A stretch of 63,834 nt of DNA, counting the filler, from Octopus bimaculoides (taxonomy: Eukaryota): assembly GCF_001194135.2 (NCBI RefSeq). It is 6 parts of 6 records of this genome, joined end to end, with 100 filler letters (N's around TTAATTAATTAA, not from the genome) between each part and the next. Parts side by side here need not be neighbours in the genome. Positions count along the whole stretch, not along the records: positions 1 to 16,843 come from NC_068987.1; positions 16,944 to 36,551 come from NC_068981.1; positions 36,652 to 48,391 come from NC_068988.1; positions 48,492 to 56,675 come from NW_026306790.1; positions 56,776 to 62,269 come from NC_069005.1; positions 62,370 to 63,834 come from NC_068982.1. One strand, written 5' to 3'. The notes beneath the pieces were generated by a model. It saw nothing but the letters and a program-made list of their open reading frames with translations, searched no databases and was not told where the DNA came from. Shown here piece by piece: positions 671 through 63,523 of the stretch; the first letter of the stretch is position 1; every line of letters begins with the position of its first letter. A program made the position numbers and the translations under genes.

Positions 671-835
671 GTACAGAGAATAAAGATACTTTGGGGACAC
701 GAGTCTAGGCTGGGTTTTATAACACGCCCAATGTCTTCGAGCAATCTTCAGGCTGATGGTTGCTAAAGCGTGTTATAAAAACCTTGCCTAGATCCGTGTC
801 TCCAAAGCAAGAAACTCGTATCTTTATACTGTGTA
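671..835. repeat. Head-to-head inverted duplication of a hammerhead-bearing module (centre ~751)
   Basis: Left arm 671-750 is an imperfect reverse complement of 752-835. Right arm (+) reads CTGATGG-TTGCT...AGCAA-GAAA-CTC-GTA (A9>G). Left arm (-) has intact CTGAAGA-TTGCT but lacks the 11 nt carrying GAAA. Confidence 0.75.
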
Positions 836-1094
836 GCTTAACTTATATATGCGAGATGGGGTGTGCTGAAAGTTACTGGCTTTAAGTACTAGAAAATACA
901 GGAGGATCAGTTAATTATGATTTTATTCAACATATTCCCCTTTCAGATTCACACACCTGTTGCAACGGGCCTTCAGTTTTTCTAAGCCCTGTAAAAGAAC
1001 TTGGAAGGTTGGGCCTCCAGCCAGGTCTTTCGCGACATCCTAATAACACATGTCTCCATACTACTACTACTACTACTATTGCTACAACTAAATA

Positions 1095-1225
1095 TTTTAC
1101 TTGTACTTTACTTTATCGTCCCTGGAGGGATGAAAAGCCAAGCCAGCCACGGCGTGTCATCCCAAAAATAAACGACCGGAAGCAAAATACCGCAAAGTGT
1201 TCTAGTCTGACGCAGTGGCCACTCT
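1095..1225 (-). mobile_element. Highly decayed SINE family C copy
   Basis: GTACTTTACTTTATCGTCCCTGGAGGGATGAAAAG resembles the conserved core seen in 5191-5398 and 10227-10440. Confidence 0.4.
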
Positions 1226-1465
1226 GCAGGCGTTCATCCTCCATTCACTGAATCGTAGATTAAAGTCTACGTGAGAAAAAAGAAGAGAAAAAGGCTAATG
1301 AATATCGATTCCATCGAGTTGTCAGATAAATTCGTTCGTTTTTGTTGCTCTTTTCTTTCAATCATTTCCGATGCTGTTTCAATTAACAAATACTTTTGTT
1401 GTGGTTCTGTTCTTCCTCTACGTCTTTTCTTCGTCGTTTTATCTTTTATCTTTTCGTCTTTTATT

Positions 1466-1665
1466 TGTTTCGGTCGTGAGACTGCGCCCATGCTAGGGCA
1501 GTGCCTTGAAGAAGTTTAGTCGAACGAATCGATCCCGGTACTGAATTTTTTTTTTTTTTTTTTNNNNNNNNNNTTTTTTTTTTTTTTTTGTTAAGTTTGA
1601 TACTTAGTCTATCGGTCTTTTGCCGAACCGCTAAGTTACAGGGACGCGTAAACATACCACAGATA
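1466..1665 (-). mobile_element. SINE family A, 3' half
   Basis: Reverse complement of the tail seen at 2860-3007 and 49500-49687 (CCGCTAAGTTACAGGGACG, TCTATCGGTCTTTTGCCGAACC). Confidence 0.75.
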
Positions 1666-2363
1666 TGTTTATACGTATGTATATATATATATAAATACAA
1701 GACATAAGTTTCATAAACTACAAAATATTAATATACACATTTATAACGCTTCATCTCGATTTGAATCACGTGAAGGTATTTAGAATGCCTGAACTTATTT
1801 CCACAAATGTGCTAAGCATTGATGCTGACCATAGTTTAATCAATAAGCGTAGGAGCGAGGTAAATGCAGTAAAAATAAGGTAGAGGGGTCAGTGGGACCC
1901 CATTTAAGCGGCCCTTCAGACATTGGACCTCCTTACGATACTCCATGGGAGTTCATGGTTTGAAATTCATTGTCAAGCAAACTCATGATCAAAGGAATTC
2001 CTACCGTTAACATATAATCGTTTACTCGTTACACATGCACAATGAACACAGAATAACATTCTCCGTTTTTTCTGTTTTCCTAAGACGGCGATACAACGAA
2101 TATCTGGCTACTATTTCTAGCAAGACGAGAGAATACGTAGAGATGCCTCGGTGGCTCATTTTGTGATTGGTGAAGCAGTTAGAACAGGATATAGACAACT
2201 GGGCTGAACTGATTGCACTATAGATTCAGTCTCTAAGCGCAGATACCATCTGGTTCGGGTTTTTCACGAATCAATAAATTATATATCAGCAACATATAAT
2301 GAGGTCACTTTATGAACCGCGTCTAATATTTCTTATGTTCATCATACGTATGTAACTCAATAA

Positions 2364-2730
2364 TAACAGGAGCACTCAGAGGGTGCAAACCTCCGCCAAG
2401 GTAATATCAGCGTCCGCTCAACGATTAGCCGGAGATGATTTTTAAAATGAGAATATCTGAAATAAACTCGACTGCTCTCATTAAACGAGAATACTAAAAA
2501 TGAACCTGACCGCTCTCAAAAATTAAGTGAAAGAACAAAACAGAAAAATAATCCAGAAATAGACGCAGGAGTGGCTGTATGGTAAGTAGCTTGCTTACCA
2601 GCCACATGATTCTGGGTTCAGACTCACTGCGTGACACGTTGGGAAAGTGTCTTCTACTATAGCCTCGGGCCGACCAAAGCCTTGTGAGCGGATTTGGTAG
2701 ACGGAAACTAAAAGAAGCCCGTCGTATATA

Positions 2731-2783
<53 letters not shown>

Positions 2784-3418
2784 NNNNNNNNNNNNNNNNN
2801 NNNNNNNNNNNNNGTGTGTGCGTGTGTGTGTGTGTATGTGTGTGTGTGTGTGTGTGTTTGTCCACCCCCACCATCGCTTGACAACCGATGTTGGTGTGTT
2901 TACGTCCCCGTAACTTAGCGGTACTAGGCTTACAAAAAAATAAGTCCTGGGGTCGATTTGTTCTCCAGCATGGCCGCAGTCAAATGACTGAAACAAGTAA
3001 AAGAGTAATCCTTGTCCGGTACCTGATCAATCCCAATGGTAGTCATGGAATGCGGAGGTGGCTGTAGAAAATTTAGTAACAGTAATAAGTAGTTTATCCT
3101 TATCTAATACGAGCCAAAGTTATCAAATTCATCATTCAAAATAGTTACAGCTTGAAGGGAGATAACTGAGAAAGACCTGAAAGTTAACGTAAGATCGTAA
3201 TCATGTAAGTCAAGTAAATATAACAAATGATCCAGAATCCTTGTCCGGTACCGGATCGATCCCAAAATCCAATTAGTTCATGTCTGTCACGAGGCCAAAC
3301 ATCCCTGAAAGTTTCATCCGAATCCATCCAGCGGTTCTTAATATATCTTGTTCACAGACAAACAAACAAACAAACACGACTGAAAACAATACCTCCGCCT
3401 TTGCTAAGGCGGACGTAA
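2364..3418 (+). mobile_element. Non-autonomous Helentron/HINE-like element interrupted by a SINE
   Basis: 5' subterminal CCTCCGCC (2390-2397). 3' terminal hairpin CCTCCGCC-tttgctaa-GGCGGACG (3392-3415) preceded by (CAAA)n. This subterminal-IR plus 3' hairpin layout is typical of HINE/DINE-1-like elements; the family assignment is inferred. Confidence 0.5.
2561..3007 (+). mobile_element. SINE family A, full length (tRNA-like head + internal (TG)n + tail)
   Basis: A-box-like TGGCTGTATGGTAAG and B-box-like GGTTCAGACTC. Tail CCAGCATGGCCGCAGTCAAATGACTGAAACAAGTAAAAGAGTA. Same structure at 32420 and 49266. Confidence 0.85.
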
Positions 3419-3431
3419 TAATAATAATACT

Positions 3432-3532
3432 GTTTTCTACTGTAAGCACAAGGCCTGGAATTTTGGGGGAGCGTACTAGTCGATTACATCGACTCCAGTG
3501 TTTCACTGGTACTTAATTTATCGATCCCAAAA
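3432..3532 (-). mobile_element. SINE family C, 3' half
   Basis: GTCGATTACATCGACTCCAGTGTTTCACTGGTACTTAATTTATCGATCCC matches the other family C copies. Confidence 0.7.
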
Positions 3533-3719
3533 ATACTAGAAGAATGCTGTAATTTACAATGTGACATTTATGACTAGACCTGTACAAGTTCCGTTTCCTT
3601 CAATAACCGGAAGTGGGTCGGAGAAAATCTTTAATGAACACCGCTCGAATGAACATTTCTTTTGGTCAATTGTTATATCAGCTGAAAATTTTGTTACAAA
3701 ATCTTGCCAAGTTTTAGCA

Positions 3720-4513
3720 TGGTAGGTATTGTATGTACGTACGTACGTGTGTATGTATATATGTATGCATGTATGTATGTATTTGTGTATGTATGTATGT
3801 ATGTATGTATGCATGCATCTATGTATGTATATATGAACGTATGTGTATATGTATGTATGCATGCATGCATCTATGTATGTATATATGAACGTATGTGTGT
3901 ATGTATGTATGTATGTATGTATGTATGTATGCATGTATGTATGTTTTCTGTGAGTTTTATTTTAGCTCTTCTTAAGAGAATCCAAGCCGGTCGCTGACAT
4001 AGCGGTAAAACTTTTTGAGTTAGGAGAGTTCGCTGTGCTTGTAAATCTGTGGTTGAGTTGGTGTGTCGGTTGAACTGTCGATGCATACACCCAAATAGGT
4101 GCACCTGCTCGTCTTAAGAATCTCAGACGATGAATATTTGGAATGTCTAACAAATCTTCACTGTGCCGCTTGTTGATGGAATTTGGAGAATGCTCGTCAG
4201 TTTCTTCGGCTCTTTACTTCGAAAACCTTTGTATGTATGTATGTATGTATGTATGTATGTATGTATGTGTGTGTGCATGTATGTATGTATGCATGTATGT
4301 ATGTATGTATGTGTGTGTGCATGTATGTGCTTATATGTGTGTATATGTATATAGGTAAGTATGCATGAATGTATGTTTGCATGCATGCATGTAGATAAGT
4401 ATATATGTTTGTATGTATGAATGAATGTTTGTATGCAAATATGTATATATGTATGTATGTTTGTATGTGTGTGTGCACGTATGTATCTATGTATTTATGT
4501 GTGTATGTATGTG

Positions 4514-4551
<38 letters not shown>

Positions 4552-4585
4552 ACATATATATATATATAAATATATATATATATAT
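3720..4585. repeat. Compound (TATG)n/(TA)n microsatellite blocks (3720-3945, 4231-4585); representative of dozens in the window
   Basis: Directly visible. Others include (TATC)n 12436-12541, (TATG)n 16950-17135, (ATAG)n 18146-18205 and (GAAG)n 30051-30105. Confidence 0.95.
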
Positions 4586-5190
4586 NNNNNNNNNNNNNNN
4601 NNNNNNNNNNNNNNNNNNNNNNNNNNNNNNNNNNNNNNNNNNNNNNNNNNNNNNNNNNNNNNNNNNNNNNNNNNNNNNNNNNNNNNNNNNNNNNNNNNNN
4701 NNNNNNNNNNNNNNNNNNNNNNNNNNNNNNNNNNNNNNNNNNNNNNNNNNNNNNNNNNNNNNNNNNNNNNNNNNNNNNNNNNNNNNNNNNNNNNNNNNNN
4801 NNNNNNNNNNNNNNNNNNNNNNNNNNNNNNNNNNNNNNNNNNNNNNNNNNNNNNNNNNNNNNNNNNNNNNNNNNNNNNNNNNNNNNNNNNNNNNNNNNNN
4901 NNNNNNNNNNNNNNNNNNNNNNNNNNNNNNNNNNNNNNNNNNNNNNNNNNNNNNNNNNNNNNNNNNNNNNNNNNNNNNNNNNNNNNNNNNNNNNNNNNNN
5001 NNNNNNNNNNNNNNNNNNNNNNNNNNNNNNNNNNNNNNNNNNNNNNNNNNNNNNNNNNNNNNNNNNNNNNNNNNNNNNNNNNNNNNNNNNNNNNNNNNNN
5101 NNNNNNNNNNNNNNNNNNNNNNNNNNNNNNNNNNNNNNNNNNNNNNNNNNNNNNNNNNNNNNNNNNNNNNNNNNNNNNNNNNNNNNNNNN

Positions 5191-5398
5191 TTTCTACTCT
5201 AGGCAAAAGGCCCAAAATTTTGGGAAATGGGAGGGGGCCAGTCGATTAGGTCGACCCCAGTACGCAACTGGTACTTAATTTACCGACCCCGAAAGGCAAA
5301 GTCGACCTCGGCGGAATTTGAACTCAGAACATAAAGACAGACGAAATACCGCTAAGCATTTCGTCCGGCGTGTTAACGTTTCTGCCTCCTCACTGCCT
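5191..5398 (-). mobile_element. SINE family C (tRNA-like head, Meta/MESC-like core)
   Basis: Minus strand: GGCAGAAACGTTAACACGCCGGACGAAATGCTTAGC...GAGTTCAAATTCCGCCGAGGTCGACTTTGCCTTTC...GTACCAG. Resemblance of the core to MetaSINE is from recall. Confidence 0.8.
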
Positions 5399-5747
5399 TA
5401 AAGGAAAACCGAACCTAAAGTATCAATAGGTAAAAAGTGTTATCGCAAATCCTGTTCAGATCTAAGATCTCTAACTCCAGGTCATGAATTTTCGGTGGTT
5501 GCATGCATATGTATAAATATATTCTGAAGAATTGGAAAATTCCGCCTATATGACTGACGTGATATCTTTCCAGCCTTACTATTTAAGACCTAAGGAGGAT
5601 AGCACTTTTCACCTTTTGACACTTCAGTTTCTTTTTACGTTTTTCGTTTTCCGCTGTTTACTGTCTGCGTTTTTATATGCTGCCTCCTCAGCTTCATCGC
5701 GTTTCTGCTATTTATTCATTTTTTTAGTTCGTTATGATATGTGGTTT

Positions 5748-5800
5748 GCGCCTGAAGAATATGTTTTAGCTTTCTCAACATATGAAACTATTAGTAGCGC
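5748..5800 (+). ncRNA. Type I hammerhead ribozyme motif, canonical core
   Basis: Helix I GCGC/GCGC; core CTGAAGA (5752-5758); helix II ATATGTT/AACATAT; GAAA; helix III ACTA-T-TAGT; GUA triplet, cleavage predicted after 5796. Confidence 0.85.
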
Positions 5801-6123
5801 TTTAATACATGTATTGTGACCTTTAAATAATAATATTTATCACCCACCAGATGGAGTACTCTTTTTTTTTGTTGAATTTTCTATCACGGATCAGTATACA
5901 ATATATATATATATATATATATGCATACATACATGCACAAATACATTCCCACATACGCACANNNNNNNNNNNNNNNNNNNNNNNNNNNNNNNNNNNNNNN
6001 NNNNNNNNNNNNNNNNNNNNNNNNNNNNNNNNNNNNNNNNNNNNNNNNNNNNNNNNNNNNNNNNNNNNNNNNNNNNNNNNNNNNNNNNNNNNNNNNNNNN
6101 NNNNNNNNNNNNNNNNNNNNNNN

Positions 6124-6188
<65 letters not shown>

Positions 6189-6680
6189 CGTGTGCGCGTG
6201 GGTGTGCATGTGTGTGTGAATTTGTCTTCTTTTCACTTCCTGCCAGGTGGCACATAAAGCTTACAGTCTTTCTTTCTTTCTTTCTTTCTTTCTTTTTCTC
6301 TGTCTCTCCTCTTTCCCCCTCTCTCCAAGCTGCTCAGTCTAAGTCTGTGCCTTGCACCTGTTTCCATATCCTCCGTTTATTAACCTGCCTCCTTTTATCA
6401 GTAGTTCTCCTCCTCCTCCCTCTCTTCCTTCTGTTTCCAAGTTCTGAACCGCTGTCTCTCCAAAATCTTGGGAATTCTTCTGAATGCTTGAAGTTTCTAT
6501 AATCAGATTTTTTTTTCCAGGATTAATTGATTAACCTAATACCTAACCTTCAAAACCTGAAGTAAAGTTGGTTTTCCGTCAGGTTTTCCTTCACTTAAAC
6601 GATAGCAGTACTGCCCACGCTCACGACCTCCATCTGCTCGGCATTTGAAAGCGGTGTTCCATTCTATTTGGGGCTTTAAT

Positions 6681-6830
6681 GGGTTCCCAGTTCAACCAAC
6701 CAAGTCGACTTTGCTTATCATCCTTTCGAAGTCGATAAAATAAATGCCAGTTGAACCCAGGGGCCGACGTAATCGCCTCATCTCCACCTCCCCTAAGCTG
6801 CCCTTGTGGCAAAAATTTGAAAAAAATTAT
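6681..6830 (+). mobile_element. SINE family C core and tail
   Basis: AAGTCGACTTTGCTTATCATCCTTTCGAAGTCGATAAAATAAATGCCAG, ending in a TTATTATT tail. Confidence 0.65.
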
Positions 6831-7277
6831 TATTCGTCAGCCAAATTTTTCACACATACTATGAATTAGCCCTTCAACCCAGAGGTTTTAGGAAAAAATA
6901 CTCAAGCACACTTCAGCAGAGTGGATTCGACCTTCGAAACTCACATGTTAAAAACATATCTAATCATTTTAAAGGGGGAAATACAGCTGAAATCAAACGC
7001 AGTTACCAGCAAACCAGCACAAGCCGAAAGAAGTATAATTCCATATATTAAATATTTAGTTTTCTCGAAGTGTTTAGTTTAGTAACAGTAGTCAAATTTA
7101 CATTAATATGCAAATTTGCTTAACAACTTGTCGGTTAAATGCAGTATTCCGTATATCTAGAAGCTGTTATCTTCTCCTTCTCGGCGGATTAGAGCGGTTA
7201 AGCGGAAATTGCTGCAGGATAACGATTGCAAACCCCGCATTTTCTTAATATATGCTAGTTTGCTATACTGGGGGGCA

Positions 7278-7324
7278 TATCCTGAATATCACTGACAATT
7301 TTGTGTATGTTTGAAACGTAGATA
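7278..7324 (+). ncRNA. Degenerate hammerhead motif (G8>U)
   Basis: Helix I TATC/GATA; CTGAATA; decayed helix II; GAAACGTA (palindrome ACGT, GUA triplet). Confidence 0.45.
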
Positions 7325-7697
7325 AATATATATTTATTATAATGAATTTCTCTCTTCCCACTTCCCTCTCTATCCCTCTCTCTTTTTCGCCCACTTCATA
7401 TATATACATATGTAAAAAAAAATAGTGAGAGATTATCAATCCGAGCAAAATACTTCATGAGCTCTCTGTTGGCCCACCAGGCTAACAGTATTACTTAGGT
7501 TAGTGAAGACCTCCAAGTAATCTTATGGTAAGGTCCAAGGTTATGGTTCATCACAATTCTATATTGTAAATCCGTGGATGGGCTTCGGATAAACTGCTTT
7601 TTAGAGTGATATGTAAAATGAAAAAAAAATGGCATCGTAGGAGCGATGTGTACCCTGCACGCACATAACTATTTTTTGAAAATTAGTTTAGCTTGCA

Positions 7698-7850
7698 AAC
7701 AGCTAAAGTCCAAATCATTATTAGGGATAAATTTCGAAAGGAATGAAAAATAAAAACATTTACCAACATTTAACAGATAGATGGTTAAATGTTTTTATTT
7801 TTCATACCCTTCGAAATGTATCTCCAATAGTGGTTTGGACTTTAGCTGTT
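7698..7850. repeat. Fold-back / MITE-like inverted repeat, 65-bp arms
   Basis: 7698-7762 versus the reverse complement of 7786-7850: 7 mismatches, 23-nt spacer. Confidence 0.85.
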
Positions 7851-8016
7851 CTTTCTAGCGTGCAAGGAATCCTATGACGGATAGCTCTTATGTGTTTAAA
7901 TGTACACTGTATATATAAGTCAAAATGTTTTTTTTTGTATTCTTCCTTTGTACTTGGAGAGTTTAAATGTAGTTATAAAAATATGCAATGTAATTTCATT
8001 AAATTTCTATATCTTT

Positions 8017-8101
8017 GTGCAGCTGAGGATTGCTCTGCATTTTATATTTGATGTAATGTTCACACTGCTTAATGGAGTCGCATTAAACGATCGTACTGCA
8101 T
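8017..8101 (+). ncRNA. Hammerhead motif with long helix II, probably inactive (G12>U)
   Basis: TGCAG/CTGCA helix I; CTGAGGA; TAAA instead of GAAA; palindrome ACGATCGT; GUA. Homologous to 63434-63523. Confidence 0.7.
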
Positions 8102-8440
8102 TAACTTTGAATATCCCTGTTGCTTATTTTGACTTTGTATATATATTTATATATATATATATACAGTATGTATATACATACATACATACATAAATACATA
8201 TATATATATATATATGTCATACTAATATATACTTTTGTTATTNNNNNNNNNNNNNNNNNNNNNNNNNNNNNNNNNNNNNNNNNNNNNNNNNNNNNNNNNN
8301 NNNNNNNNNNNNNNNNNNNNNNNNNNNNNNNNNNNNNNNNNNNNNNNNNNNNNNNNNNNNNNNNNNNNNNNNNNNNNNNNNNNNNNNNNNNNTTATATAT
8401 ATATATATATATGTACGTATATATACACACATGAATTGTA

Positions 8441-8530
8441 TTGTTAGTGATTTCGAAGTTTCGACAGCTAACTCATCAATGGACAGTCCGATGATGGTTT
8501 GGTTGACCGAAGCTTCGAAGTCACTATCAA
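8441..8530. ncRNA. Divergent (head-to-head) pair of hammerhead motifs
   Basis: Plus strand: CCGATGA(8488)-TGGT..ACC-GAAG-CTTCGAAG-TC-ACTATC. Minus strand: TTGATGA(8479)-G..C-GAAA-CTTCGAAA-TC. The region is an imperfect palindrome centred ~8483. Confidence 0.7.
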
Positions 8531-8996
8531 TATGATTCTTGTTAATGAATGATAAATCTACCAAATGTATTGAATAATCCTTTAGCTTATTATAAAGTTG
8601 TTTTTATTATAACATAAAGACAAACATTAATAGATATATATTTATATCATTGCATACATAAATATATATAGAAAGAGAAGGGTGCAGATACACGTATGTA
8701 TGAGCAGATGTGTGATATGCTAAGCTTTAACATTTATAGCACTCAGATTCAGTACAGGTATGTCCTTAGAAACAGATATGGGGTAGGTATTTATAGAACC
8801 TATTCGCTCGTGACAGCAACAAACTTGAACCAAGACAAGAAAAACACAGAAATATAAATGACATGGCAAGTAAGGCGATGAATGTAGGTTATGAAAGAAG
8901 AGATATCTGTTGGTTAGTAGAAACAATTATTATTATACACACGCGCGCGCAAACACATACACACAGACACACACTCTCTCTCTCTCTCTATTTCTC

Positions 8997-9033
<37 letters not shown>

Positions 9034-9064
9034 GTTTTGCTCTGTGTCGTCCCTAATGTTTTTT

Positions 9065-9990
9065 CTTAGAGACCATGTCATATGCTTTCCTGTAGTTCAC
9101 CCACGCCATCGCCAAATTTTTGTGTCTATTCTTGCAATAAGCCAGGATAGTTTTATCGGTTAGTAATTGATCCTTCGTTCCTCTGCTCTTACGTCTACAC
9201 CCTTTTTGTTCCACTAGTAGCAGGTCGTTGTCTTCTAGGTACTTATAAATTCTGTTTGTTATGATGCCCGTCATCAGTTTCCACATCAGTGGCAAACAAG
9301 ATATTGGTCGGAAGTTTCCAACTGCATTCCTTTTACTTGGGTCCTTCTGGCATAGTACCGCTCTTCCTTTTGTCATCCAGGCCGGTACTTGGATGTCACT
9401 ACTCAGTATTTCGTCCATCTATCTCGCAGTTCTCCTCTACAGGGCTGTCAAGTTTTTAAGCCAAAAGCCCTGAACCCCATCTGGGCCAGGTTCTTTCCAT
9501 TTAGGAATTTTCCTGCACTGATCTCTAATCATCTCCTAGGTTATTCTTAAATCCTCCTGCTGATACTCTCCACTCTCCTCTTTGAGTGTCTTTAACCTGT
9601 CTGCTTCAGTTTTGTGTTGTTTCTCCTCAGACCATATGTCTGACCAGAATCTCTTACTTTCTTGAGCATCCGGCACGGCTTCTTCACCTTTTTCTTTCCC
9701 ATCCAGTTCCTGATACACTCGTTTCTGATTTTGTTCGAAAAGTCTACTTAATCTGTACAGCTCGATTCTCTGTTCATATCTCTTTAGTTTATGTTCTTTA
9801 GCTTTCAACCTCTGTTTTAATTCCTCAATCACAACATTGATCCCCTTTCTCTTCACCCTATACCTCCTCTCTACCTCAACATATTTCTTCCGCTGAGCTT
9901 CATTTCTCTTTTACCGTTCCAGAATATTAATATGTTTTCTGGTCTCTGTAACAGATTGCGTAATTCTCCTTTTCCACCATGGTGAGATGC
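9065..9990 (-). mobile_element. R4/Dong-type non-LTR retrotransposon fragment (pre-RT plus RT N-terminal domains), decayed
   Basis: [47 protein letters not shown] and [11 protein letters not shown] motifs, with stops and frameshifts. Confidence 0.85.
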
Positions 9991-10226
9991 ACCCCACCCA
10001 CCAAAATTTTAATAATAAACGAACATAAACTCGGCAGGTTTAGTATTATTACTTAGTACCATTTTGGGGCCGTAGTACATTTATAGGAATGTAGAGGGTG
10101 CCGGAGTACATTTGTCTTACGACAGCTGCCTGCAGAACCCCGGTCCGAATTTTTCCATTGGAACAAACTTCCCTGAAAGGCACCACGTAATGGGCCAATT
10201 GCACTCTCATCTGATGATGATCTATA

Positions 10227-10440
10227 AATATTGGTTTTATATTTTGGCACACGACGAACAATTTCGGAGGAGGGGCTAAGTCGATTGGACCGACCTCAAC
10301 GCCCAAATGGTACTTATATCCTGAAAGATGAAAGGCAAAGTCACCTTCGGTGGAATTTTGAACTCAATGCAAAGACGGACGAAATGCCGCTAAGCATCCC
10401 CCACCCCCAGGCGTGCTAGCGATTCCGTCAGCTTGCCGCC
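10227..10440 (-). mobile_element. SINE family C, near full length
   Basis: Head GGCGGCAAGCTGACGGAATCGCTAGCACGCC and core ACTTTGCCTTTCATCTTTCAG on the minus strand. Confidence 0.8.
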
Positions 10441-10829
10441 CTATGTTCTATAGATATTAATTATTTAATATAAGCGTAAGTCATTTCAAATTCATTATAA
10501 AAATGCTAATTTAATGGCTAGACTCCAATATATATACAGTATAATCGCTACTGGTATAAATGATTACGAATTTAATATTACAAAAGAACTATATCCGACA
10601 CCTACCAAGTCCAATTTATTTACATACATATATACATGCACACGCACAACACATTACGTATATATATATATATAATTTTTAAACAAGAATATTGTTGATA
10701 GTTGTCAATAATATACTTGTTTATGAATAATAAATTTGAATTCTATAAAGAATAGTGGAACCCGTCACATTAATGTAAACTTGGTTTTATTATGACTGAA
10801 CATAAAAACAAACGTTAACTTATATATGT

Positions 10830-11100
10830 GGAGGCGCAATGGCCCGGTGTTTAGGGCAGCGGACTCGCGGTCATAGGATCGCGGTTTCGATTCCCAGACA
10901 GGGCGTTGTGAGTGTTTATTGAGCGAAAACACCTAAAGCTCCACGACGCTCCGGCAGGGGATGGTGGCGAACCCTGCAGTACTCTTTCACCACAACTTTC
11001 TCTCACTCCTTCTTCCTGTTTCTGTTGTACCTGTAATTCAAAGGGCCAGCCTTGTCACACTGTGTCACGCTGAATATTCCCGAGAACTACGTTAAGGGAA
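10830..11100 (+). mobile_element. SINE family B (tRNA-like head), 3' end lost in gap
   Basis: GGAGGCGCAATGGCCCGGTGTTTAGG...GGTTTCGATTCCC; near-identical to 62370-62751 and 12773-12943. Confidence 0.85.
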
Positions 11101-11349
11101 NNNNNNNNNNNNNNNNNNNNNNNNNNNNNNNNNNNNNNNNNNNNNNNNNNNNNNNNNNNNNNNNNNNNNNNNNNNNNNNNNNNNNNNNNNNNNNNNNNNN
11201 NNNNNNNNNNNNNNNNNNNNNNNNNNNNNNNNNNNNNNNNNNNNNNNNNNNNNNNNNNNNNNNNNNNNNNNNNNNNNNNNNNNNNNNNNNNNNNNNNNNN
11301 NNNNNNNNNNNNNNNNNNNNNNATATATATATATATATATATATATATA

Positions 11350-11643
11350 AGATGGACTCTACCGTTGAAGACGACGTATGAGCGTTCATCTATTGCCGAA
11401 TGACCTGCACGATTGATTTGCTTATAGTGGTCAAATGCCCGTTGCGCACATTAAGCCAATCCTCGCCATCAAATCGACGTTGTCTGAACAGGTGCCCGAT
11501 GTACCACGCATCGGGTGTCGAAGTGATGACAGAGCAACGCAAGATGAAGTGTATTGCTCAAGAGTACAACGCACCGCCTGGTCTAGCAATTGAAATCACG
11601 ATCGCTAGATCGTCAGTGCAACACCCTAACCACTAAGCCATGC
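11350..11643 (-). mobile_element. tRNA-headed SINE, family D
   Basis: Minus strand begins GCATGGCTTAGTGGTTAGGGTGTTGCAC...GATTTCAATTGC, then TCTTGAGCAATACACTT. Confidence 0.6.
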
Positions 11644-12334
11644 ATATGTGTGTATATATATATCTGTGTGTGCGTGCATGTGTGAGTGTATGTGTTAGAC
11701 GTAATTCTGTTACACTGAACCAAGTGCGTTCTATGTTTTAGCTTCTGTCCACCAGTATTTTTGTCTCTAATATTTTTGTACTTACGTTTTAACACAATCA
11801 AATAGCACGTCGCGGCATGAAAATATAGAAATAACAATGTGAACATCTGCGTGTGTGGCTTGTATGTTTGTTTCTGTCTTAAAATGTTACTTTATACGTC
11901 TAGTTTAAAAGCATTGTTGCAGCATGGTTATGTCAGTGTGTTCGCGTGTCGAGTATATCTGTCATTGAATATCTTGACATTATACCACTGCGTACATGTA
12001 ACAGATTGTTTGTGTCAAAGCTGTATGCAGACATGGCTTACAGTTTTTTTTTTCTGTTTATAAATAGTGCAGTTGGTAAACGGAGTCGTTTTTGACTGTG
12101 TCTGCATGTGGAAGATCTGCTTACTCAAGTGCTTGTCACCACAGCTTTTAAACATGTTTAAAAGAGTGACAAACTAGCTTTGCTATCAATCATGTTGTTT
12201 CGAGTTCAGTTCTACTGCGTGGCACATGCGCCAAGTGTCTTCTGTTGTAGCTTGGAGTCGATGAATGCCTTGTGAGTGAATTTGATACTCAGAAACAAGT
12301 GGAAGCCCGCCGTGTGTGTGTATGCATGTATGCC

Positions 12335-15393: not shown

Positions 15394-15443
<50 letters not shown>

Positions 15444-17240: not shown

Positions 17241-17293
17241 GTTAGTTTTACAGCTGTTTCTGCGATATGAGAGATATCGCTTCATCAGAGACG
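17241..17293 (-). ncRNA. Type I hammerhead motif, canonical core
   Basis: CTGATGA (17288-17282); A; 7-bp GCGATAT/ATATCGC; A; GAAA; perfect palindrome ACAGCTGT; GUA triplet. Helix I is only partly paired. Confidence 0.75.
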
Positions 17294-17540: not shown

Positions 17541-17586
17541 AAAACTGTCCGACGAACGGGAACATGAAACTCTGAGTACCAGATTC
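17541..17586 (+). ncRNA. Type I hammerhead motif, tandem copy 1
   Basis: AAAACTGT-CCGACGA-ACG/CAT-GAAA-CTC-T-GAG-TA; cleavage predicted after 17578. The 3' side of helix I is diverged. Confidence 0.7.
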
Positions 17587-17690: not shown

Positions 17691-17736
17691 AAAACTGTCC
17701 GATGAACGGGAACGTGAAACTCAGAGTAACGGTTTT
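17691..17736 (+). ncRNA. Type I hammerhead motif, tandem copy 2
   Basis: 8-bp helix I AAAACTGT/ACGGTTTT; CCGATGA; ACG-GGAA-CGT; GAAA; ACTC-A-GAGT; GUA; cleavage predicted after 17728. Confidence 0.85.
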
Positions 17737-30460: not shown

Positions 30461-30535
<75 letters not shown>

Positions 30536-30659
30536 GGTGTTAATGTAAGATTAAGTAAGTTTGTGAAGTTGTATATAAAAAAAAATGTTTAATACATTTA
30601 ATACAAAGAACGTACATATGTATTCATATGAAAGAAGTCCGACTTACAGAGAATGGAAA

Positions 30660-32230
30660 AGATATCAGGAATTAAGGGTTGAGTACATTTTTCCGAGTCC
30701 CAAAGTTTTTTTCTTGGAACTTGGTGATCCAAAATGATGCTTGTAACTTGATTCCATCATCGGATGCCACCAACCTTCGTCTTCAGGGAAGAATTCTATA
30801 TTTGAGGTGTTGACAGAATGGAGATTAAAGAAGGAATGATTTTGTGGAGAACTAAGCGTATTGGAAAGAGGAGTTGGTGGTGTTTAGATAGAGAGTAGTG
30901 GGAGGAGAAAATAGATCTTGGAGTTACGGTTAATAATGAGGCGAGTGATAGTAGAAGTGGAAGGTGTGAGGAAGGGAGAGTGTAGTTTAAGTAGTACGTG
31001 AAAGATAAACTTTGTGTTAGTTTGCATGGAGTCTATAGAGTTAAAGGTTCGGATAGAGAAACAGGGATGGTTATTTGAGTGAAATGAGTTGACTGGTTCA
31101 GTAGCTGGGGGTGAGAAGGTGGTCAAAAGTATTCGTTATTAGTTCAAAGGAATTGGGAGGGTATTGAATGGGTGGGGTGGGGAGTTATGGTAAATAGAGG
31201 AGTTTGGGATTGAATAGAGGGGTGTGAGTAGGGAGGAGATAAAGGTAGATTGGTCAGTGTTCAAAGGAGTGGCGTATTGTTATGTACTTTTTGAAACTGG
31301 GGAGGGTGGGGAAGCTAAGAGGGAAGTGTGACGTAGTTGATTTGAAGAAAGTGGAAGAAACTGGAGATGTATGTATGAGAGAGAGTAGAAGGCGCTAGAG
31401 TAGTATTTTCTAACTAGTGGATTGCAGGGCTGAGTTTGTCTTGTTTTAAGGTGTTTTGAGGTATGAAAACTTGTTATGAGATTATATGGATTTGGTGAAG
31501 TGCGTGACAGATGAGTAGAACCTATGTCTACAAGAATAAATAACATGAGAGAATTTATGAAGTAATGAGGCGTTATAAAGGCGAGGATTGGTTAATGATT
31601 CTTTTAGACATAATTTACAATTGCCGATGTTTGCAAGTATGGTGAAGACTCGCATACTGCGGACCAGGATTGGGTGTAAGAAATATTTTGGTATTTGAGG
31701 TGGTATATATACGTTGCCAAGGCGGTTGACAATTTAGTATTTGGATTGGCGAAAGATTTCGTGAGTATACGGTAGCGGCGCTTGAAATCTACAGTGCCAC
31801 CGATATATATAACCTTGCTTGATGGGAGCGTAGTGTTAATGCACTGCATAGATTATATTTATGCGCGGACAAGAGCTTCCAATAGGGCGTAATTGAGATA
31901 CATGACAATTAAAAATTTCGTACCAGCTCCGTGATTGGGACTTTGTACAAGCGAGGTTGAGCTCAGTTGGTTCATTAAGTGGGGGAGAACCAGAAGTGTG
32001 ATCTACATTTGCATTGGATTGGGAGGTGGTATTGCAGCTAGTATTTGTTGTCGCGTAGGTAGGATTGAAGAATGATTGCTTGAATCTAATATTATTTGAG
32101 GGGCTTTTATTAAGGGCTGTGTTATTGCTACTATCTGGGTTAACATGGGGTGCAGTATGAGAATTTAGGTGTTCGGAGGATTGATGTTGGAGTTTGCATT
32201 TCTTTCAAGAGACGATTATGGATCCTAAAT
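30660..32230 (-). mobile_element. Penelope-like element fragment: GIY-YIG endonuclease plus long C/T-rich 3' tail
   Basis: IYIGGTVDFKRRY..SF..STALATYIYHLK..WS..SSPY then CLKE..SCRH, the typical PLE endonuclease C-terminus. Confidence 0.75.
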
Positions 32231-32419
32231 TAGTTCTCCAATTCTCTGTAAATCAGACTTCTTTTGTATTAATAAATATGTACATTCTTTGTGTTAAACG
32301 TATTTAACATTTTTTTATATATCAAATTGACTAAGTATTTTGTCTTTACATTTACTCCTCTATCTGGTCATGTTCAAATCTCTTGTGCACCACGAAGTAT
32401 CTTCTATACAGAGAATACC

Positions 32420-32681
32420 TGTCTCATGGCCGTGTGGTAAGCAGCTTGTTTACCATCCACATGGTTCTGGGTTCAGTCTTCTCCTATAGCCTCGGGCCGA
32501 CCAAGACCTTGTGAGTGGATTTGGTAGTCGGGAACTGAAATTAGTCCGTCGTATTCTTTCTGTTGAAGAGCGTAGCTCGAAACGTCAAAGACTTTCCGTA
32601 TTCCCGAGCGTCATACTAATATATACTTTTGTTATTTACACCACCTGTCCTCGTCTGTTGTTATTTTTTGTATATTCTCCC

Positions 32682-36912: not shown

Positions 36913-36951
36913 TCTTGATAATTTGCTTCATCGCAATGAAAACCGGTTAGA
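36913..36951 (+). ncRNA. Hammerhead motif, U3-A8 core variant
   Basis: TTGATAA (36915-36921); TTGC/GCAA helix II; GAAA; perfect palindrome AACCGGTT; UUA triplet. Only 2 bp of helix I remain. Confidence 0.55.
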
Positions 36952-37280: not shown

Positions 37281-37584
37281 GACGATGTATAATTGTCAGC
37301 TCATGACAGCTTTTTCTTACGCAGTTTTTAAAGAAAAGATTGAGAACATTATTCCATTTCAAAAGCCGTAACCATCCGATGAAACGTAATTTCAAAACAA
37401 GAGTATATCCCAAGAATACAGCATGTGTAGTCTGTCGAAGCTTACGATGTATTCTTGGGATATTCTTTTGTTTTTGAAATTATTTCATCTGATGATTACA
37501 GTTTTGCAATGAAGTGATATTCTCATTCTTCTATTAAAGAAAAGCGTAAAAACAGCTGTAATGAATTGATAATTATCCTTCGTC
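37281..37584. repeat. Fold-back element, ~138-bp arms, 27-nt loop
   Basis: 37281-37420 aligns with the reverse complement of 37448-37584; the innermost ATATCCCAAGAATACA is perfect. Confidence 0.9.
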
Positions 37585-38290
37585 TGTTGTGACCAATGGT
37601 TTCGTATCCATAAAGCGCTTAGCCTTATAGACGGCTCGTCAGATGGCAATAACTGCGGACATATAACGTCTTTTCAAACTGGTGCTAGAAAACTGTTACA
37701 AAAAATATATTGTGGGAGCCTTAAGCGGCACGGGTTTTCGCCCTTGGGTCCGTCTAGTCAGGAAATTATTACGGTCCTAATCAATGAACGGAGAATCTTT
37801 GGCCTTACGTTGCTTCAGTCCGAAAGTATTTTTGTACGGCCCTAATCAACGAACAGGAAATCACACGCAAGCAGTAGGTAGCGTTTGACATGCGGACAAC
37901 AGCTGTAGTTTTAAGTTCTGGAATTTAACAGTGACCCTGTGTCAAGCGAGGTTTTAGCAGCATTGCCCGTTGTGCTATGCAAAGCTTGCATCGTCTGCTC
38001 TCACTTATATTTAGTTGCGTAGAGAGTTCCTTGATCTTTAAGGTCCAACACGTACCTTGCCAGGGACGTGACATAATGCCTTTGTAGTATCCTAAAAGAA
38101 GACCTATGGTTGTACAGGTGACTCTTAAAGGCAGTTCCGGTCGAACGAACCGATATATCTACGAACTTGAGCGTTGGTTGTACTATCACCTCTGGTGTTC
38201 ATTCCGTTGGCTCCGGTTCTGATGTTACAGCAGTTGATGCCGGCTACTGTCACTGCTCTCAGTGCTGTTATTTCTAACAACTCCACCATA
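37575..38290 (-). mobile_element. Penelope-like element 3' fragment (GIY-YIG)
   Basis: RYIGS/(4-nt GTTC duplication)/TGTAFKSHLYNHRSSFR..TSLARYVLDLK, then CKLC; terminal hammerhead. Confidence 0.75.
37581..37653 (-). ncRNA. Type I hammerhead motif at the 3' end of a Penelope-like fragment
   Basis: CTGACGA-G...C-GAAA-CC-ATT-GG-TC; GUC at 37593-37591; helices I and II are partly decayed. Confidence 0.7.
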
Positions 38291-49438: not shown

Positions 49439-49484
<46 letters not shown>

Positions 49485-56675: not shown

Positions 56676-56775
56676 NNNNNNNNNNNNNNNNNNNNNNNNN
56701 NNNNNNNNNNNNNNNNNNNTTAATTAATTAANNNNNNNNNNNNNNNNNNNNNNNNNNNNNNNNNNNNNNNNNNNN

Positions 56776-57813
56776 GCAAACGATCTAGATGACCACTCGG
56801 AAGAGACGGTCGAACGGGTTCGCCAAAAACTCTTGCGAAGTCCCAAGAAGTCCATATGAAGAACAAGTCTGGAAACCTAGATTCCTAATACGAGGAAACG
56901 CTTGCTAATGAAATTCTACAAGCTGCAGCTCGTTCAGGCCATAACGGCAGATGACAAGCCAAACCACAAACAATTCTGTGTTGATATGCAAGAGAAACCT
57001 GAAGATGCCGAGTTCAAGGAACGTCTTGTTTTCAGTGATGAGTCCACATTTCATACGAATGGCAAAGTCAATAAGAATAATGTTCGCATTTGGGGCGAAG
57101 AAAATCCCCATGCCACAGTTGAGCATGAGAGGGACTCACCAAAAGTGAATGTGTTCTGCGCCATCTCCAAGAAACTTCTTCATGGCCCGTTCTTCTTCGA
57201 GTGAAATGTAACCGACGATGTTTATCTGCAAATGCTTCAGAACTGGCAAATGGATGAGCTTATTGCAAATGAACATGAAGACTTCATTTTCAACAGGACG
57301 CGGCTCCACCTCACTTGAAGCTCGCTGTGTCGGCTTATCTCAATGACAATCTGCGAGGCAGATGGATCGAGCGTGCTGGTGATGAAGACAATGTGCTGTT
57401 GAAATGGCCGCCACGTCCACCTGACCTGACACCTTGCGATTTTTTTCTCTGGGGCTATGTGATGGGCATGGTCTATGTCCCCCGTCATCCTGCAAGCCTA
57501 GAGGAACTCGAGCAGAGAATCACTACCGCACTGGAGACTGTTACCCACGACATGCTGCTGCAGCGTGTGTGGCAGGAGCTGGACTATCGAATTGACGTGT
57601 GCCGTGGATCAGGTGGTCCGCAGATTGAACATTTGTGAAGTCGTTCATGGAATCCACATTCCTTTGAATTTCTCATTCAAACTTGAAGGAATAAATGTTA
57701 CGTTCCTCAACATTAAACCTGTTTAGTTTCACTTGCTTTGACTATGTAGTTTCTGTGATATTCACGTCTCAAATGATGTCAAATATTTTGAAATACTCTG
57801 TAAACACTCTGTA
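56776..57813 (+). mobile_element. Decayed Tc1/mariner-superfamily transposon (rosa/DD41D-like)
   Basis: FSDESTFH, QQDAAPPH and WPPRPPDLTPCDFFLWG motifs; stop at 57202, frameshift ~57290; 3' TIR ...ACTCTG-TA. Confidence 0.9.
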
Positions 57814-58930: not shown

Positions 58931-60009
58931 GTGTGTGCGTGCGTGCGTGCGTGTTGTTGTGTGTGTGCTTGTGTATGTGTTNNNNNNNNNNNNNNNNNNN
59001 NNNNNNNNNNNNNNNNNNNNNNNNNNNNNNNNNNNNNNNNNNNNNNNNNNNNNNNNNNNNNNNNNNNNNNNNNNNNNNNNNNNNNNNNNNNNNNNNNNNN
59101 NNNNNNNNNNNNNNNNNNNNNNNNNNNNNNNNNNNNNNNNNNNNNNNNNNNNNNNNNNNNNNNNNNNNNNNNNNNNNNNNNNNNNNNNNNNNNNNNNNNN
59201 NNNNNNNNNNNNNNNNNNNNNNNNNNNNNNNNNNNNNNNNNNNNNNNNNNNNNNNNNNNNNNNNNNNNNNNNNNNNNNNNNNNNNNNNNNNNNNNNNNNN
59301 NNNNNNNNNNNNNNNNNNNNNNNNNNNNNNNNNNNNNNNNNNNNNNNNNNNNNNNNNNNNNNNNNNNNNNNNNNNNNNNNNNNNNNNNNNNNNNNNNNNN
59401 NNNNNNNNNNNNNNNNNNNNNNNNNNNNNNNNNNNNNNNNNNNNNNNNNNNNNNNNNNNNNNNNNNNNNNNNNNNNNNNNNNNNNNNNNNNNNNNNNNNN
59501 NNNNNNNNNNNNNNNNNNNNNNNNNNNNNNNNNNNNNNNNNNNNNNNNNNNNNNNNNNNNNNNNNNNNNNNNNNNNNNNNNNNNNNNNNNNNNNNNNNNN
59601 NNNNNNNNNNNNNNNNNNNNNNNNNNNNNNNNNNNNNNNNNNNNNNNNNNNNNNNNNNNNNNNNNNNNNNNNNNNNNNNNNNNNNNNNNNNNNNNNNNNN
59701 NNNNNNNNNNNNNNNNNNNNNNNNNNNNNNNNNNNNNNNNNNNNNNNNNNNNNNNNNNNNNNNNNNNNNNNNNNNNNNNNNNNNNNNNNNNNNNNNNNNN
59801 NNNNNTATATATTGCGGCAAGTGAGGAAGTGCGATGATTATTGTATCGTTCAGGCAGAAACTTGAAGTTCTGAATGTAAGTCTCCATAACTTATCATCTA
59901 ATAGATATTGTCCTCTATTTCTAACGACATTGTGGGTTACTTCTTTTGTCGTCACAAGCAGTTTGTCATATGTATGCATGCTGTGTGTGTCTGTATGTAT
60001 GTATGTCAT

Positions 60010-60107
60010 CATTTAGTTTTATTTTCAAATTTCTTGCCAATTGAGAAAGAACTGGTTTCTAACCTAGATCCAAACTCCTTCATTGGAATTTCAACAACAT
60101 CAACAGC
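60010..60107 (-). repeat. Second copy of the 12335-12435 hammerhead-like module
   Basis: GAACTGGTTTCTAACCTAGATCCAA..CCTTCATTGGAATTTCAACA matches 12375-12422. Confidence 0.7.
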
Positions 60108-60984
60108 ACATATTTGTATGTATGCATACGGGCAGATTTTGTATGTTTTGTTTTATGTATGTTTTCTCATGCATATAGTTGCATATCTAGACAGGCTCAT
60201 ATATACTTAAATGATAAACTTCAAGAAAGTTTTACAGATTGTTACTGTTCCAGTGATGGCTTAGATCTGTAATCTTCGAATTAGCTTACTCCTTTCTAGT
60301 TTTGAGAAGCGTAATTCCTCAAGATTGGTATTTAGGCAGTGTATTACGTATCCCAGTGTCTCAATAATTACAGGTATAAACTTGAACTTGTAGTTTTGTT
60401 AGAGTAACTGCAGATTTCTCAATAATTCAGCGTAGATACTCTCTTTTTTTTCTCGCTGATCTTTATCTTTATGTTAACATCTGCAAGGGAGCTGAGTTCC
60501 ACAACTGAACCCAACATGTATGTATGTATGTATGCATGTATGTATGTATGTATGTATATATGTATGCATGTATGCATGTATGTATGTATGTATGTATGTA
60601 TGTATGTATGTGTGTGTGTCTTCTCTCCTTAAATTTAGAGGAAATTTCGACCGTTTCACACACTTGATAACAAGGTTGAAGGAAAGTAACTTCTTTTAAC
60701 CAACACCCTTCAAATCTTAAGAAGGCCTTGCAGATCTTTATTGTATTAGATACCGTAACCATTTGTTGCGTATCAATCAAGGATTTGCGTGATCACCCCA
60801 TGATCCCAAGTTCAGCCACACTTTGCTCCAGACGGATTAATATTTATCCTGTTACTCCAAATCTGTGTGTATAAATTAAGTGTGTGTGCGTATGTGCATG
60901 TGTGTCTGTGTATATGCTTGCGTTGTGCGCGCGCGTGCGTACGAGTGGGAGAGTGTGGAGTGTGCGCGTGCACAAGTGCGTGTG

Positions 60985-61425: not shown

Positions 61426-61715
61426 GCAATATAATAAAATTTTCGTCAGACATCATGTCTTTAATGTCCGACATCGTAATCAGCATGTATTACTCCGCCC
61501 ACTTTCTCCACATTACGCAGACGATCTCTTTAGCAGCCGACATTAGTACTGCTTTAATGGGGCACTATTTCCTATCACAGTTACATTATGCCATTCGCAC
61601 TCCATTTCGAAATATATGTATTACTGTTAATTATTTGGTAATATCAACATCAATATATGTAATCATGTGTGCATGTGACAGAGGTGTTTATGTGCATGTG
61701 CATGTATCCGTCTAA

Positions 61716-61759
<44 letters not shown>

Positions 61760-62236
61760 NNNNNNNNNNNNNNNNNNNNNNNNNNNNNNNNNNNNNNNNN
61801 NNNNNNNNNNNNNNNNNNNNNNNNNNNNNNNNNNNNNNNNNNNNNNNNNNNNNNNNNNNNNNNNNNNNNNNNNNNNNNNNNNNNNNNNNNNNNNNNNNNN
61901 NNNNNNNNNNNNNNNNNNNNNNNNNNNNNNNNNNNNNNNNNNNNNNNNNNNNNNNNNNNNNNNNNNNNNNNNNNNNNNNNNNNNNNNCACACATATATAT
62001 ATATGTATATATATATATAAATATATATATATATACATATATACATACATATATATATATATACATATATACACAAATATATATATGTATGTGTGTGTTT
62101 GCCTCTGTATGGATAAATGTATGAATAAACACACAAACACGCACACACGCACACACACACACATACATGCATAATACACTTATACATACAAACATACATA
62201 CATACATGCATACATACATACATATATATACATATA

Positions 62237-62269
<33 letters not shown>

Positions 62270-62369
62270 NNNNNNNNNNNNNNNNNNNNNNNNNNNNNNN
62301 NNNNNNNNNNNNNTTAATTAATTAANNNNNNNNNNNNNNNNNNNNNNNNNNNNNNNNNNNNNNNNNNNN

Positions 62370-62751
62370 GCACAATGGCCCAGTGGTTAGGGCAGCGGAC
62401 TCGCGGTCATAGGATCGCGGTTTCGATTCCCAGACTGGGCGTTGTGAGTGTTTATTGAGCGAAATCACCTAAAGCTCCACGAGGCTCCGGCAGGGGATGG
62501 TGGCGAACCCTGCTGTACTCTTCCACCACAACTTTCTCTCACTCTTATTTACTGTTTCTGTTGTGCCTGTAATTCAAAGGGTCAGCCTTGTCACACTGTG
62601 TCATGCTGAATATCCCCGAGAACTACGTTAAGGGTACACGTGTCTGTGGAGTGCTCAGCCACTTGCACGTTAATTTCATGAGCAGGCTGTTCCGTTGATA
62701 GGATTGACTGGAACCCTTGACGTCATAAGCGACGGAGAGCCAACAACAACA
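62370..62751 (+). mobile_element. SINE family B, near full length, (AAC)n tail
   Basis: A-box TGGCCCAGTGGTTAGG, B-box GTTTCGATTCC, tail GACGGAGAGCCAACAACAAC. Confidence 0.9.
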
Positions 62752-63433
62752 AAGCCCAATTTGCCAAGCTTTCTTCATCATGCCAGTAATATGCAGGGAT
62801 TTTACAAATGTTGAACAAACATTGGACAGGGGTTGGACAATGACTGAGCCCCAAAGCTTCATCAGAGAGATTGTAATGTTATGAATCTAACATATGAGGA
62901 AGTAAGGTAAAATAATAAAATAAAATGAAATAATAACATAATAGAAACAGTAAGGAATGGTAAAAACATCAATTCCAAGGTTATATCCATAATCCATGGG
63001 ATTACATCTTATGGTAAAGAAAGTCACTTTCAGGAATAATTTCCACAGGTTATAAGAGTTACATCCTATTTCAATTTTACTGGGGGAAATAGCGAGGGTA
63101 AGATGTTGTGGAGTGAGTTTAATGGGATGATCCATATCACAGGGGTCAAAAGTTAGAGACTAACAGCTATGTAATAGAGCATCATAAAAAGAAGTGAGAA
63201 AGTTAACTAATGTGAACTTGTTTGGCGAAATCAATACATAAGTATATCAATGAAAGAATAATTTGGGTAAAATCTTAGTGCGATATTATTACTTATTAAC
63301 AAGAACCACATCCTAATATCCCATGGTGTGACTAAAGCAAGATTTTCTCTGTCTGTCTCCTTAAGTTCTTGGAGATTTTAGGTACAATTATACTGTGTCC
63401 ATCTGTTCTAATTTAATTACATTCTATGTCTCT

Positions 63434-63523
63434 GTGTAGCTGAGGATTGCTCTGCATTTTTAAATTGATGCAATGATTACGTTGTTCAATTAAATGGAGT
63501 TGCATGAAACGATCGTACTGCAT
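63434..63523 (+). ncRNA. Type I hammerhead motif, canonical core, long helix II
   Basis: GTGTAG/CTGCAT helix I; CTGAGGA (63440-63446); ~59-nt helix II region; GAAA; perfect palindrome ACGATCGT; GUA; cleavage predicted after 63517. Confidence 0.85.

Follow-up and report, generated by a model that had tools for sequence, protein, structure and literature searches.

Minimal type I hammerhead ribozymes are known from the terminal repeats of Penelope-like elements (PLEs), with counts of about 2,000 plus 1,300 for Schistosoma, 4,000 for coelacanth and 9,000 for Xenopus (PMC4209133). The same study, by Cervera and de la Pena (2014), describes heterogeneous, mostly single motifs that probably come from truncated PLEs, with examples from limpet and oyster, and PLE hammerheads have been modelled as dimers (PMC4209133; PMC6765202). 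Retrozyme numbers exceed 6,000 in a coral and rise to as many as 120,000 copies in axolotl (PMC7229834). PLEs are abundant and diverse in octopuses (PMC13282606, PMC8967140), the available part of the octopus account in PMC13282606 makes no mention of ribozymes, and a scan of the Rfam type gave 235 hammerheads in giant squid (PMC6962438). No study of hammerhead motifs in octopus or other cephalopods was found in a literature search that left out Lunse et al. 2017 and supplement file 1 of PMC4209133, and the searchable remainder of that supplement contains no cephalopod term. Here, we describe a window of Octopus bimaculoides DNA (the whole stretch analysed, 63,834 bases including 7,584 N, hence 56,250 called bases) that carries 14 supported hammerhead motifs. 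These are genuine type I hammerheads of about ten multi-copy families, and they are probably the 3' remnants of truncated insertions from a large number of PLEs.

The window is AT-rich and dense in microsatellites, short interspersed element (SINE)-like repeats and fragments of long interspersed elements (LINEs) and DNA transposons. An initial very strict scan returned the motif at 5748 alone, plus 17691 at one mismatch (motifs are named here by a single window position). A scored descriptor, in which an additional base, an extended helix II, a palindromic helix III and the U4C variant were permitted, was applied to both strands and compared with 260 local dinucleotide shuffles. At a score of at least 7.5, nine matches were found (5752, 17699, 17249, 63440, 8023, 37489, 8488, 32560 and 17549) against shuffle means of 0.66 and 0.56, and none of the 260 shuffles contained nine. 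Four matches scored at least 12, against a null of 0.01-0.02, while at a score of at least 3 the excess was small (33 observed versus about 22 in shuffles). Since this score was devised after the sites had been inspected, a strict descriptor with cores taken from the literature was added and compared with 300 shuffles. With a stem I of at least 3 bp, it detected three matches (5752, 17699 and 63440) against a null mean of 0.15, a number reached by one shuffle in 300; in canonical form, it detected two against 0.03, with none of the 300 shuffles equalling this count. A short palindromic helix III, and often an extra base before helix II, was seen in the motifs, but the palindrome is built into the descriptor and is not independent evidence. 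No Rfam hammerhead was present among 150 of the 173 rows for the window, and two short Rfam scans gave no matches. Thus, the motif set is real and statistically solid, and the dinucleotide-shuffle comparison proposed in a preliminary description of the window, made here within the window itself, placed motif density clearly above that of shuffled sequence (nine versus about 0.6).

That description had listed 17 sites, of which 12 are supported by score, an inverted partner or family data (Table 1). Eight are supported by score: 5748, 8017, 8481, 17241, 17541, 17691, 32555 and 63434. The other four, 752, 8441, 36913 and 37581, score within or near the null range and are supported by other evidence: 752 by an inverted partner with a perfect box 1, 8441 as the inverted partner of 8481, 36913 by its U3-A8 core and family data, and 37581 by family members with a 6-bp stem I. 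Two motifs, 37489 (+) and 37305 (-), had been missed, and the resulting 14 motifs in 56,250 called bases, or about one per 4 kb in about ten families, agree with the roughly one per 3-4 kb first proposed. The remaining five sites find no support in their window sequence, with best scores of 4.0 (7278), 1.0 (12372), -6.5 (13953), -3.2 (22611) and -0.7 (60047).

Taken as a set, the motifs have the two core boxes and the U-H cut site of a type I hammerhead. Both core boxes are perfect in each of the four motifs originally called canonical (5748, 17241, 37581 and 63434). However, stem I is reduced to one contiguous pair in 17241 under the strict descriptor and is lost in 37581, and only 5748 and 63434 are both complete and canonical. 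All three helices were recovered under the strict descriptor in 5748, 17691 and 63434. Known core variants are carried by 17541 and 17691 (U4C) and by 36913 (U3-A8), and the remaining seven motifs are damaged. The predicted cut lies after 5796 in the 5748 motif and after 63517 in the 63434 motif, which has a 6-bp helix I, a 59-nt helix II domain and a palindromic helix III. The minimal hammerhead at 32560-32586 has a 5-bp helix I, a 4-bp helix II, an extra A and, in this copy, A6U.

Table 1. Hammerhead motifs, associated repeat copies and the GIY-YIG-like element in the window
Position	Strand	Feature	Score
689..751	-	Inverted partner of the 753 copy; box 1 perfect (745-751), box 2 lost; outside the 14	
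753..820	+	Decayed hammerhead; A9G, helix II long, stem I without its 5' strand at inversion junction	6.8
5748..5800	+	Type I hammerhead, complete; core canonical, 4-bp helix I, 7-bp helix II, helix III nearly palindromic	17.0
7991..8133	+	Short repeat copy of the 63434 family; hammerhead 8023-8095 with G12 mutated, then (TA)n	
8449..8479	-	Decayed hammerhead, paired head-to-head with 8488; U3, intact box 2	
8488..8522	+	Hammerhead; U4C, A15.1G, extra base before helix II, palindromic helix III	9.7
17249..17288	-	Hammerhead; canonical core, 7-bp helix II, palindromic helix III, broken stem I	13.6
17549..17578	+	Hammerhead; U4C, first member of a direct pair with 150-nt spacing, then (TAA)n	7.9
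17691..17736	+	Hammerhead; U4C, helix I 8 bp, second direct copy	15.4
30531..32363	-	Decayed element; GIY-YIG-like frame 31604-31852, inverted terminal copy of 125 bp (30531-30654 / 32241-32363)	
32550..32680	+	Short copy of very abundant hammerhead family, inside SINE, then (TA)n	9.0
36915..36949	+	U3-A8 variant hammerhead of abundant family; copy stops near 37011 at (TA) run	
37305..37378	-	Decayed hammerhead; left arm of 37277-37588 foldback	
37489..37560	+	Hammerhead; G12 deleted in this copy, right arm of foldback	10.3
37591..37642	-	Hammerhead; canonical core, long helix II, 5' strand of stem I lost here and present in other copies	6.7
63409..63555	+	Short repeat copy with complete canonical hammerhead 63434-63523, then (TA)n	12.6

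Several further candidates were rejected. At 12372 and 60047, box 1 fails at two positions and stem I is absent; the surrounding stretches (12312-12454 and 59985-60127) form a real two-copy short repeat, 81% identical and lying between microsatellites, in which a simple hairpin competes with the poor hammerhead reading. A candidate at 13590-13618 (+) combines a U3-A8 core, a stem I of 2 bp and a palindromic helix III, but fell within the null range and was not counted, and a match at 61437 (-) with a score of 6.5 and two core mismatches was taken as chance.

The families behind these motifs were examined in sequencing data. Twelve runs shared at least half of the words of one test stretch, 11 of them probable DNA with 2.1-2.5 billion contig letters each. 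Two stretches of the window, covering 5 of the 14 motifs, were compared at 80% likeness with two DNA contig sets (X2 and X5) and two RNA runs (X14 and X16), with about 6 in 100 of every run sampled for RNA. Core restorations are our own reading of the resulting difference tables, which covered the best 40 of 91 rows for the stretch including 36913-37643 and the best 40 of 225 for that including 32555. In the minus-strand copy at 37305, majority letters at two box 1 positions, 37372 and 37377, are canonical (428/490 and 484/524 of depth in X2), and the majority letter at 37312 rebuilds the helix III palindrome (9377/9654 of depth). A G inserted behind 37549 brings back G12 of the plus-strand copy in 47% of depth in X2 and 62% in X5, and in the 36913 motif one pair of stem I is re-formed by the majority letter at 36952 (99.9%). 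Around 37589 and 37643, the DNA loose ends match each other as complements across 6 bp and form a perfect stem I; thus, other copies keep the stem lost from the window copy. Within the window, the paired copies 8441/8481 are damaged at different positions, and 17541/17691 differ at position 7 and in the centre of helix III. For 36913, an RNA subfamily (seven reads, X16) keeps U3-A8 and helix II, with differences at position 7, within loop II and in the first base of helix III. Agreement of this subfamily with the difference rows, which reach down to a share of about 85%, suggests without proving that U3-A8 is the family state. Thus, the window copies have decayed from intact cores.

The same comparison demonstrated that the families are multi-copy. 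Single-copy contig depth was near 39 in X2 and near 52 in X5; summed depth is not copy number, and its multiples of the single-copy level are to be read as orders of magnitude only. Summed depth was 2.2-2.7 million for the 32555 copy (about 5 x 10^4 times single copy), 0.54-0.63 million at 36913 (about 1.3 x 10^4 times), 13,500-20,500 at 37581 (350-400 times) and 6,000-20,000 for the foldback arms (150-380 times). The SINE-like repeat into which the 32555 copy is inserted (32418-32945) has a summed depth of about 2.5 x 10^5 times single copy. A stretch of 27 bases at 8216-8242, beside an assembly gap, is identical to the 32555-family tail and constitutes a second copy of that family. The exact 33-base pattern of this family had no match in metagenome or viral contigs.

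The window copies are 5'-shortened pieces of longer families. Other copies extend upstream at 32550 (loose ends in 44 contigs of X2 and in 1379 and 1465 RNA reads) and at 37448 (31 and 22 contigs), and behind the window copy at 37643 the family continues (70 and 66 contigs). Downstream, an AT microsatellite lies within 120 nt of the predicted cut in 9 of 14 motifs, compared with 11.7% of 4,000 random positions, a count in which the 120-nt limit was picked after several sites had been inspected and the paired copies are not independent. These microsatellites lie 20-115 nt beyond the cut site, whereas only 3 of the 14 motifs have one on the upstream side. The 3' ends are fixed, in that 8017 and 63434 end at the identical base before (TA)n. 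Inverted arms in head-to-head arrangement are present at four sites (752, 8441/8481, 17541 and 37277-37588), and opposite-strand joints occur in other contigs of the families. By comparison, 8 of 150 random centres had a non-simple inverted match with a score of at least 40, of which two were the same inverted sites and three were a single microsatellite tract. Foldback elements at 7698-7850 and 49110-49988 resemble miniature inverted-repeat transposable elements and contain no hammerhead match.

These features resemble those of PLEs. Described PLEs are heavily truncated at the 5' end, come with inverted 5' pieces and a tail of 30-40 bp, and insert at (TA)n targets (PMC8557442), and 5'-truncated copies, inverted 5' pieces and AT-rich or (TA)n targets were all found here, with the inverted arms and opposite-strand joints matching the pattern of that study. 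The extra base before helix II, U3-A8, the palindromic helix III and opposite-strand pairs are PLE traits in PMC4209133. In a PLE of the anole, reverse transcription starts within the RNA, 111-118 nt into the open reading frame (ORF), and the hammerhead cuts at +26; insertion is into AT-rich targets and proceeds normally in vitro with catalytic mutants, and RNA sequencing (RNA-seq) reads ending at the cut are absent (PMC11167929). Together, the mechanisms described in these two studies (PMC11167929; PMC8557442) would produce hammerhead-bearing stubs that far outnumber ORFs, as seen in the window. In PLEs the hammerhead sits in the terminal repeat, and reverse transcription begins inside the RNA a short distance downstream, as shown for the anole element. 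In the model we propose, even the shortest insertion would therefore bear the motif and few would extend to an ORF. Insertion would take place in AT-rich DNA, frequently together with a second, inverted piece, and the copies would decay afterwards; young copies would cut RNA only slowly, mainly as dimers through the palindromic helix III. The early suggestion that these are type I hammerheads of the PLE kind, belong to many families and for the most part lie at a distance from ORFs was borne out, with PLE parentage being presumed for each family.

One decayed element in the window (30531..32363) is likely the 3' part of a PLE. Close to the 3' end its depth reaches about 370 times the single-copy level, compared with 1-45 times across the coding part. 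At the depth peak, 30690-30790 (-) contains a box 1, a hairpin of about 70 nt, GAAA and a possible stem I; helix III is absent, and this stretch was rejected as a hammerhead and is possibly an atypical terminal-repeat RNA structure. At one locus outside the window, a weak relative of the GIY-YIG-like frame was found at a distance of 220 nt from a minimal hammerhead with a perfect core, with no reverse transcriptase seen, which lends slight support to the PLE link.

RNA reads from the motif families span the predicted cuts, and in the 37581 family 408 and 322 reads continue past the cut. No pile-up of RNA ends at predicted cuts was listed, a weak test given fragmented and apparently unstranded RNA-seq; both mate directions were about equally frequent, so the transcript strand is not readable. 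Most RNA of the 37581 family comes from a low-copy variant, with about three times single-copy DNA depth at 37599 and an RNA depth of about 570-590 in X14 and 470 in X16. In this variant the core and stem I are intact and the first helix III pair is mismatched. At 37589-37643, median read overhangs were 32-34 past the cut side versus 79-82 on the opposite side, a hint of a transcript end nearby. The lowest-energy dimer folds predicted for 63434, 17241 and 36913 have an intermolecular helix III and an intact helix II, in line with the published dimer model. In published hammerheads U4C reduces activity and U3-A8 is active (PMC3088659), and A6C causes a strong loss of activity in magnesium (PMC7151607); a literature search turned up no paper on an A6U hammerhead. 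Most window copies are presumably inactive.

Several observations weigh against an origin from truncated PLEs. No motif was connected with a reverse transcriptase ORF within its own element. The PLE identity of 30531-32363 rests on its GIY-YIG resemblance (0.91-0.92 for named clusters) and one weak tblastn locus, and Pfam (four PLE-region frames) and homologue searches for the GIY-YIG-like frame gave nothing. This sole PLE-like element in the window offers a partial hammerhead-like reading, and its lowest-energy fold buries box 2 (GAAA) in a 9-bp hairpin. Five of the 14 motifs have no microsatellite inside 120 nt, the limits of the microsatellite count given above apply, and monomer folds predicted for 32555, 8017, 8481 and 17691 favour other structures. 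The depth of the 32555 and 36913 families, far above the 150-400 times of the others, and the near uniformity of the 36913 family (99.9% share at 36952 and 36988), which together make a short non-autonomous master copy plausible, also count here, and equally favour a different account of these two families as short, non-autonomous, SINE-like deletion derivatives that kept the terminal repeat and borrow PLE proteins. Non-autonomous PLEs have been described in the Chlamys clade (PMC8557442). However, the 32555 family extends upstream of the window copy, the 36913 family runs beyond the left end of the compared stretch, and a steep 3' excess arises from heavy 5' truncation alone, as in the GIY-YIG element. 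We regard this account as unlikely for 32555 and 36913, and it can coexist with truncated PLEs for the other families. The large population of short non-autonomous elements put forward in the preliminary description is a step the remaining copies, being shortened pieces of longer families, do not need; for 32555 and 36913 it is possible.

The retained reading, truncated PLE insertions, was also weighed against non-LTR retrozymes (those lacking long terminal repeats), short tandem hammerhead repeats that spread through circular RNA. The direct copies 17541 and 17691, with their 150-nt spacing inside the 150-450 bp monomer range of PMC7229834 and an assembly gap after the second copy, would fit a retrozyme, but no tandem array contains a motif, each of the 12 further motifs occurs singly or in inverted orientation, the helices are not of the canonical 6-bp and 4-bp form, and RNA ends do not pile up at cut sites; this origin appears very improbable. 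Retention of the motifs by the host for processing its own transcripts would be suggested by the expressed low-copy variant of 37581 with its intact core and stem I. It is hardly credible, however, when the core or stem is damaged or variant in 12 of the 14 window copies, RNA reads run across the predicted cut, and the RNA depth of abundant families roughly tracks DNA depth, as in passive read-through. Pattern-matching on AT-rich, repeat-rich DNA could account for the 5 of 17 listed sites that score inside the shuffle range, and shuffles do yield about 22 matches per window at a score of at least 3. For the set as a whole, chance is refuted by the failure of any of 260 shuffles to reach nine matches at 7.5 or above, and independent genomic copies carry a restored core at the damaged positions, which makes a chance list equally hard to credit.

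Other features of the window comprise remnants of unrelated elements. Decayed LINE fragments lie on the minus strand at 9053-9910, 22975-23529, 23756-25768 and 26356-26628, some ending in (TAA)n, and are presumably of the Dong/R4 type. Pfam gave a weak reverse transcriptase match at 9053-9418, and 23756-25768 contains a 1-kb direct duplication with 68% identity. A frameshifted coding remnant at 33060-33561 (-) could represent the N-terminal portion of an ORF from a retroelement, and protein homologue searches with the frame at 33060-33371 were without match. Transposase-like frames at 19693-20016, 48652-48996 and 56881-57638, which we take to be Tc1/mariner, had no Pfam match. The intervals 16844-16943, 36552-36651, 48392-48491, 56676-56775 and 62270-62369 each consist of two 44-N runs and a 12-base spacer, and are assembly placeholders rather than biology.

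If the window is typical, 14 motifs per 56 kb would extrapolate to about half a million per genome, a figure that one window is insufficient to establish, and hammerhead remnants would then rank with the most frequent structured RNA motifs that the genome carries, unseen by Rfam. As a tentative proposal that we think more apt to fail than to hold, the genome may contain several hundred thousand motifs, at about one per 4 kb a higher density than any found in the literature searched, with the two largest families being short non-autonomous PLE-driven elements in tens of thousands of copies, at least one of them based on U3-A8, that spread regardless of cutting. The motifs provide a simple tag for assigning short unlabelled repeats to PLE ends. 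They also form a large natural mutation series on the role of PLE hammerheads, catalysis being dispensable for insertion in vitro (PMC11167929).

Collectively, the best account of the motifs is that they are terminal-repeat hammerheads of the known PLE kind, carried by new families, with density and the size of two families as the unusual aspects. The kind of feature is thus known, while its scale and this host were not found in the literature searched. PMC4209133 already ascribes heterogeneous single motifs to truncated PLEs, close to the circumstance, motifs mapping to ordinary PLE ends, in which the preliminary description would have given up any novelty. The metazoan PLE hammerheads of that study share with those described here a type I fold, a palindromic helix III, an extra base between 9 and 10.1, U3-A8 and an arrangement in many heterogeneous families, mostly single and away from ORFs, with opposite-strand pairs within 100-700 bp. 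They differ in density, at about 2,000-9,000 per genome versus about one per 4 kb here (two complete and canonical in 56 kb), and several motifs here have a 51-59 nt helix II domain or a mismatch closing helix II, and three carry U4C. The green anole's Poseidon element PAc (Frangieh et al. 2024, PMC11167929) likewise has 3' ends shortly downstream of the hammerhead, AT-rich targets and no RNA-seq ends at the cut, but is a full element whose protein and ribozyme were tested, whereas the copies in the window are remnants known from sequence alone. The non-LTR retrozymes that Cervera and de la Pena (2020, PMC7229834) described from coral, mussel and axolotl are also type I, high-copy, low-GC repeats; they are canonical tandem units of 150-450 bp with circular RNAs, in contrast to the solitary or inverted octopus motifs with their non-canonical helix sizes.

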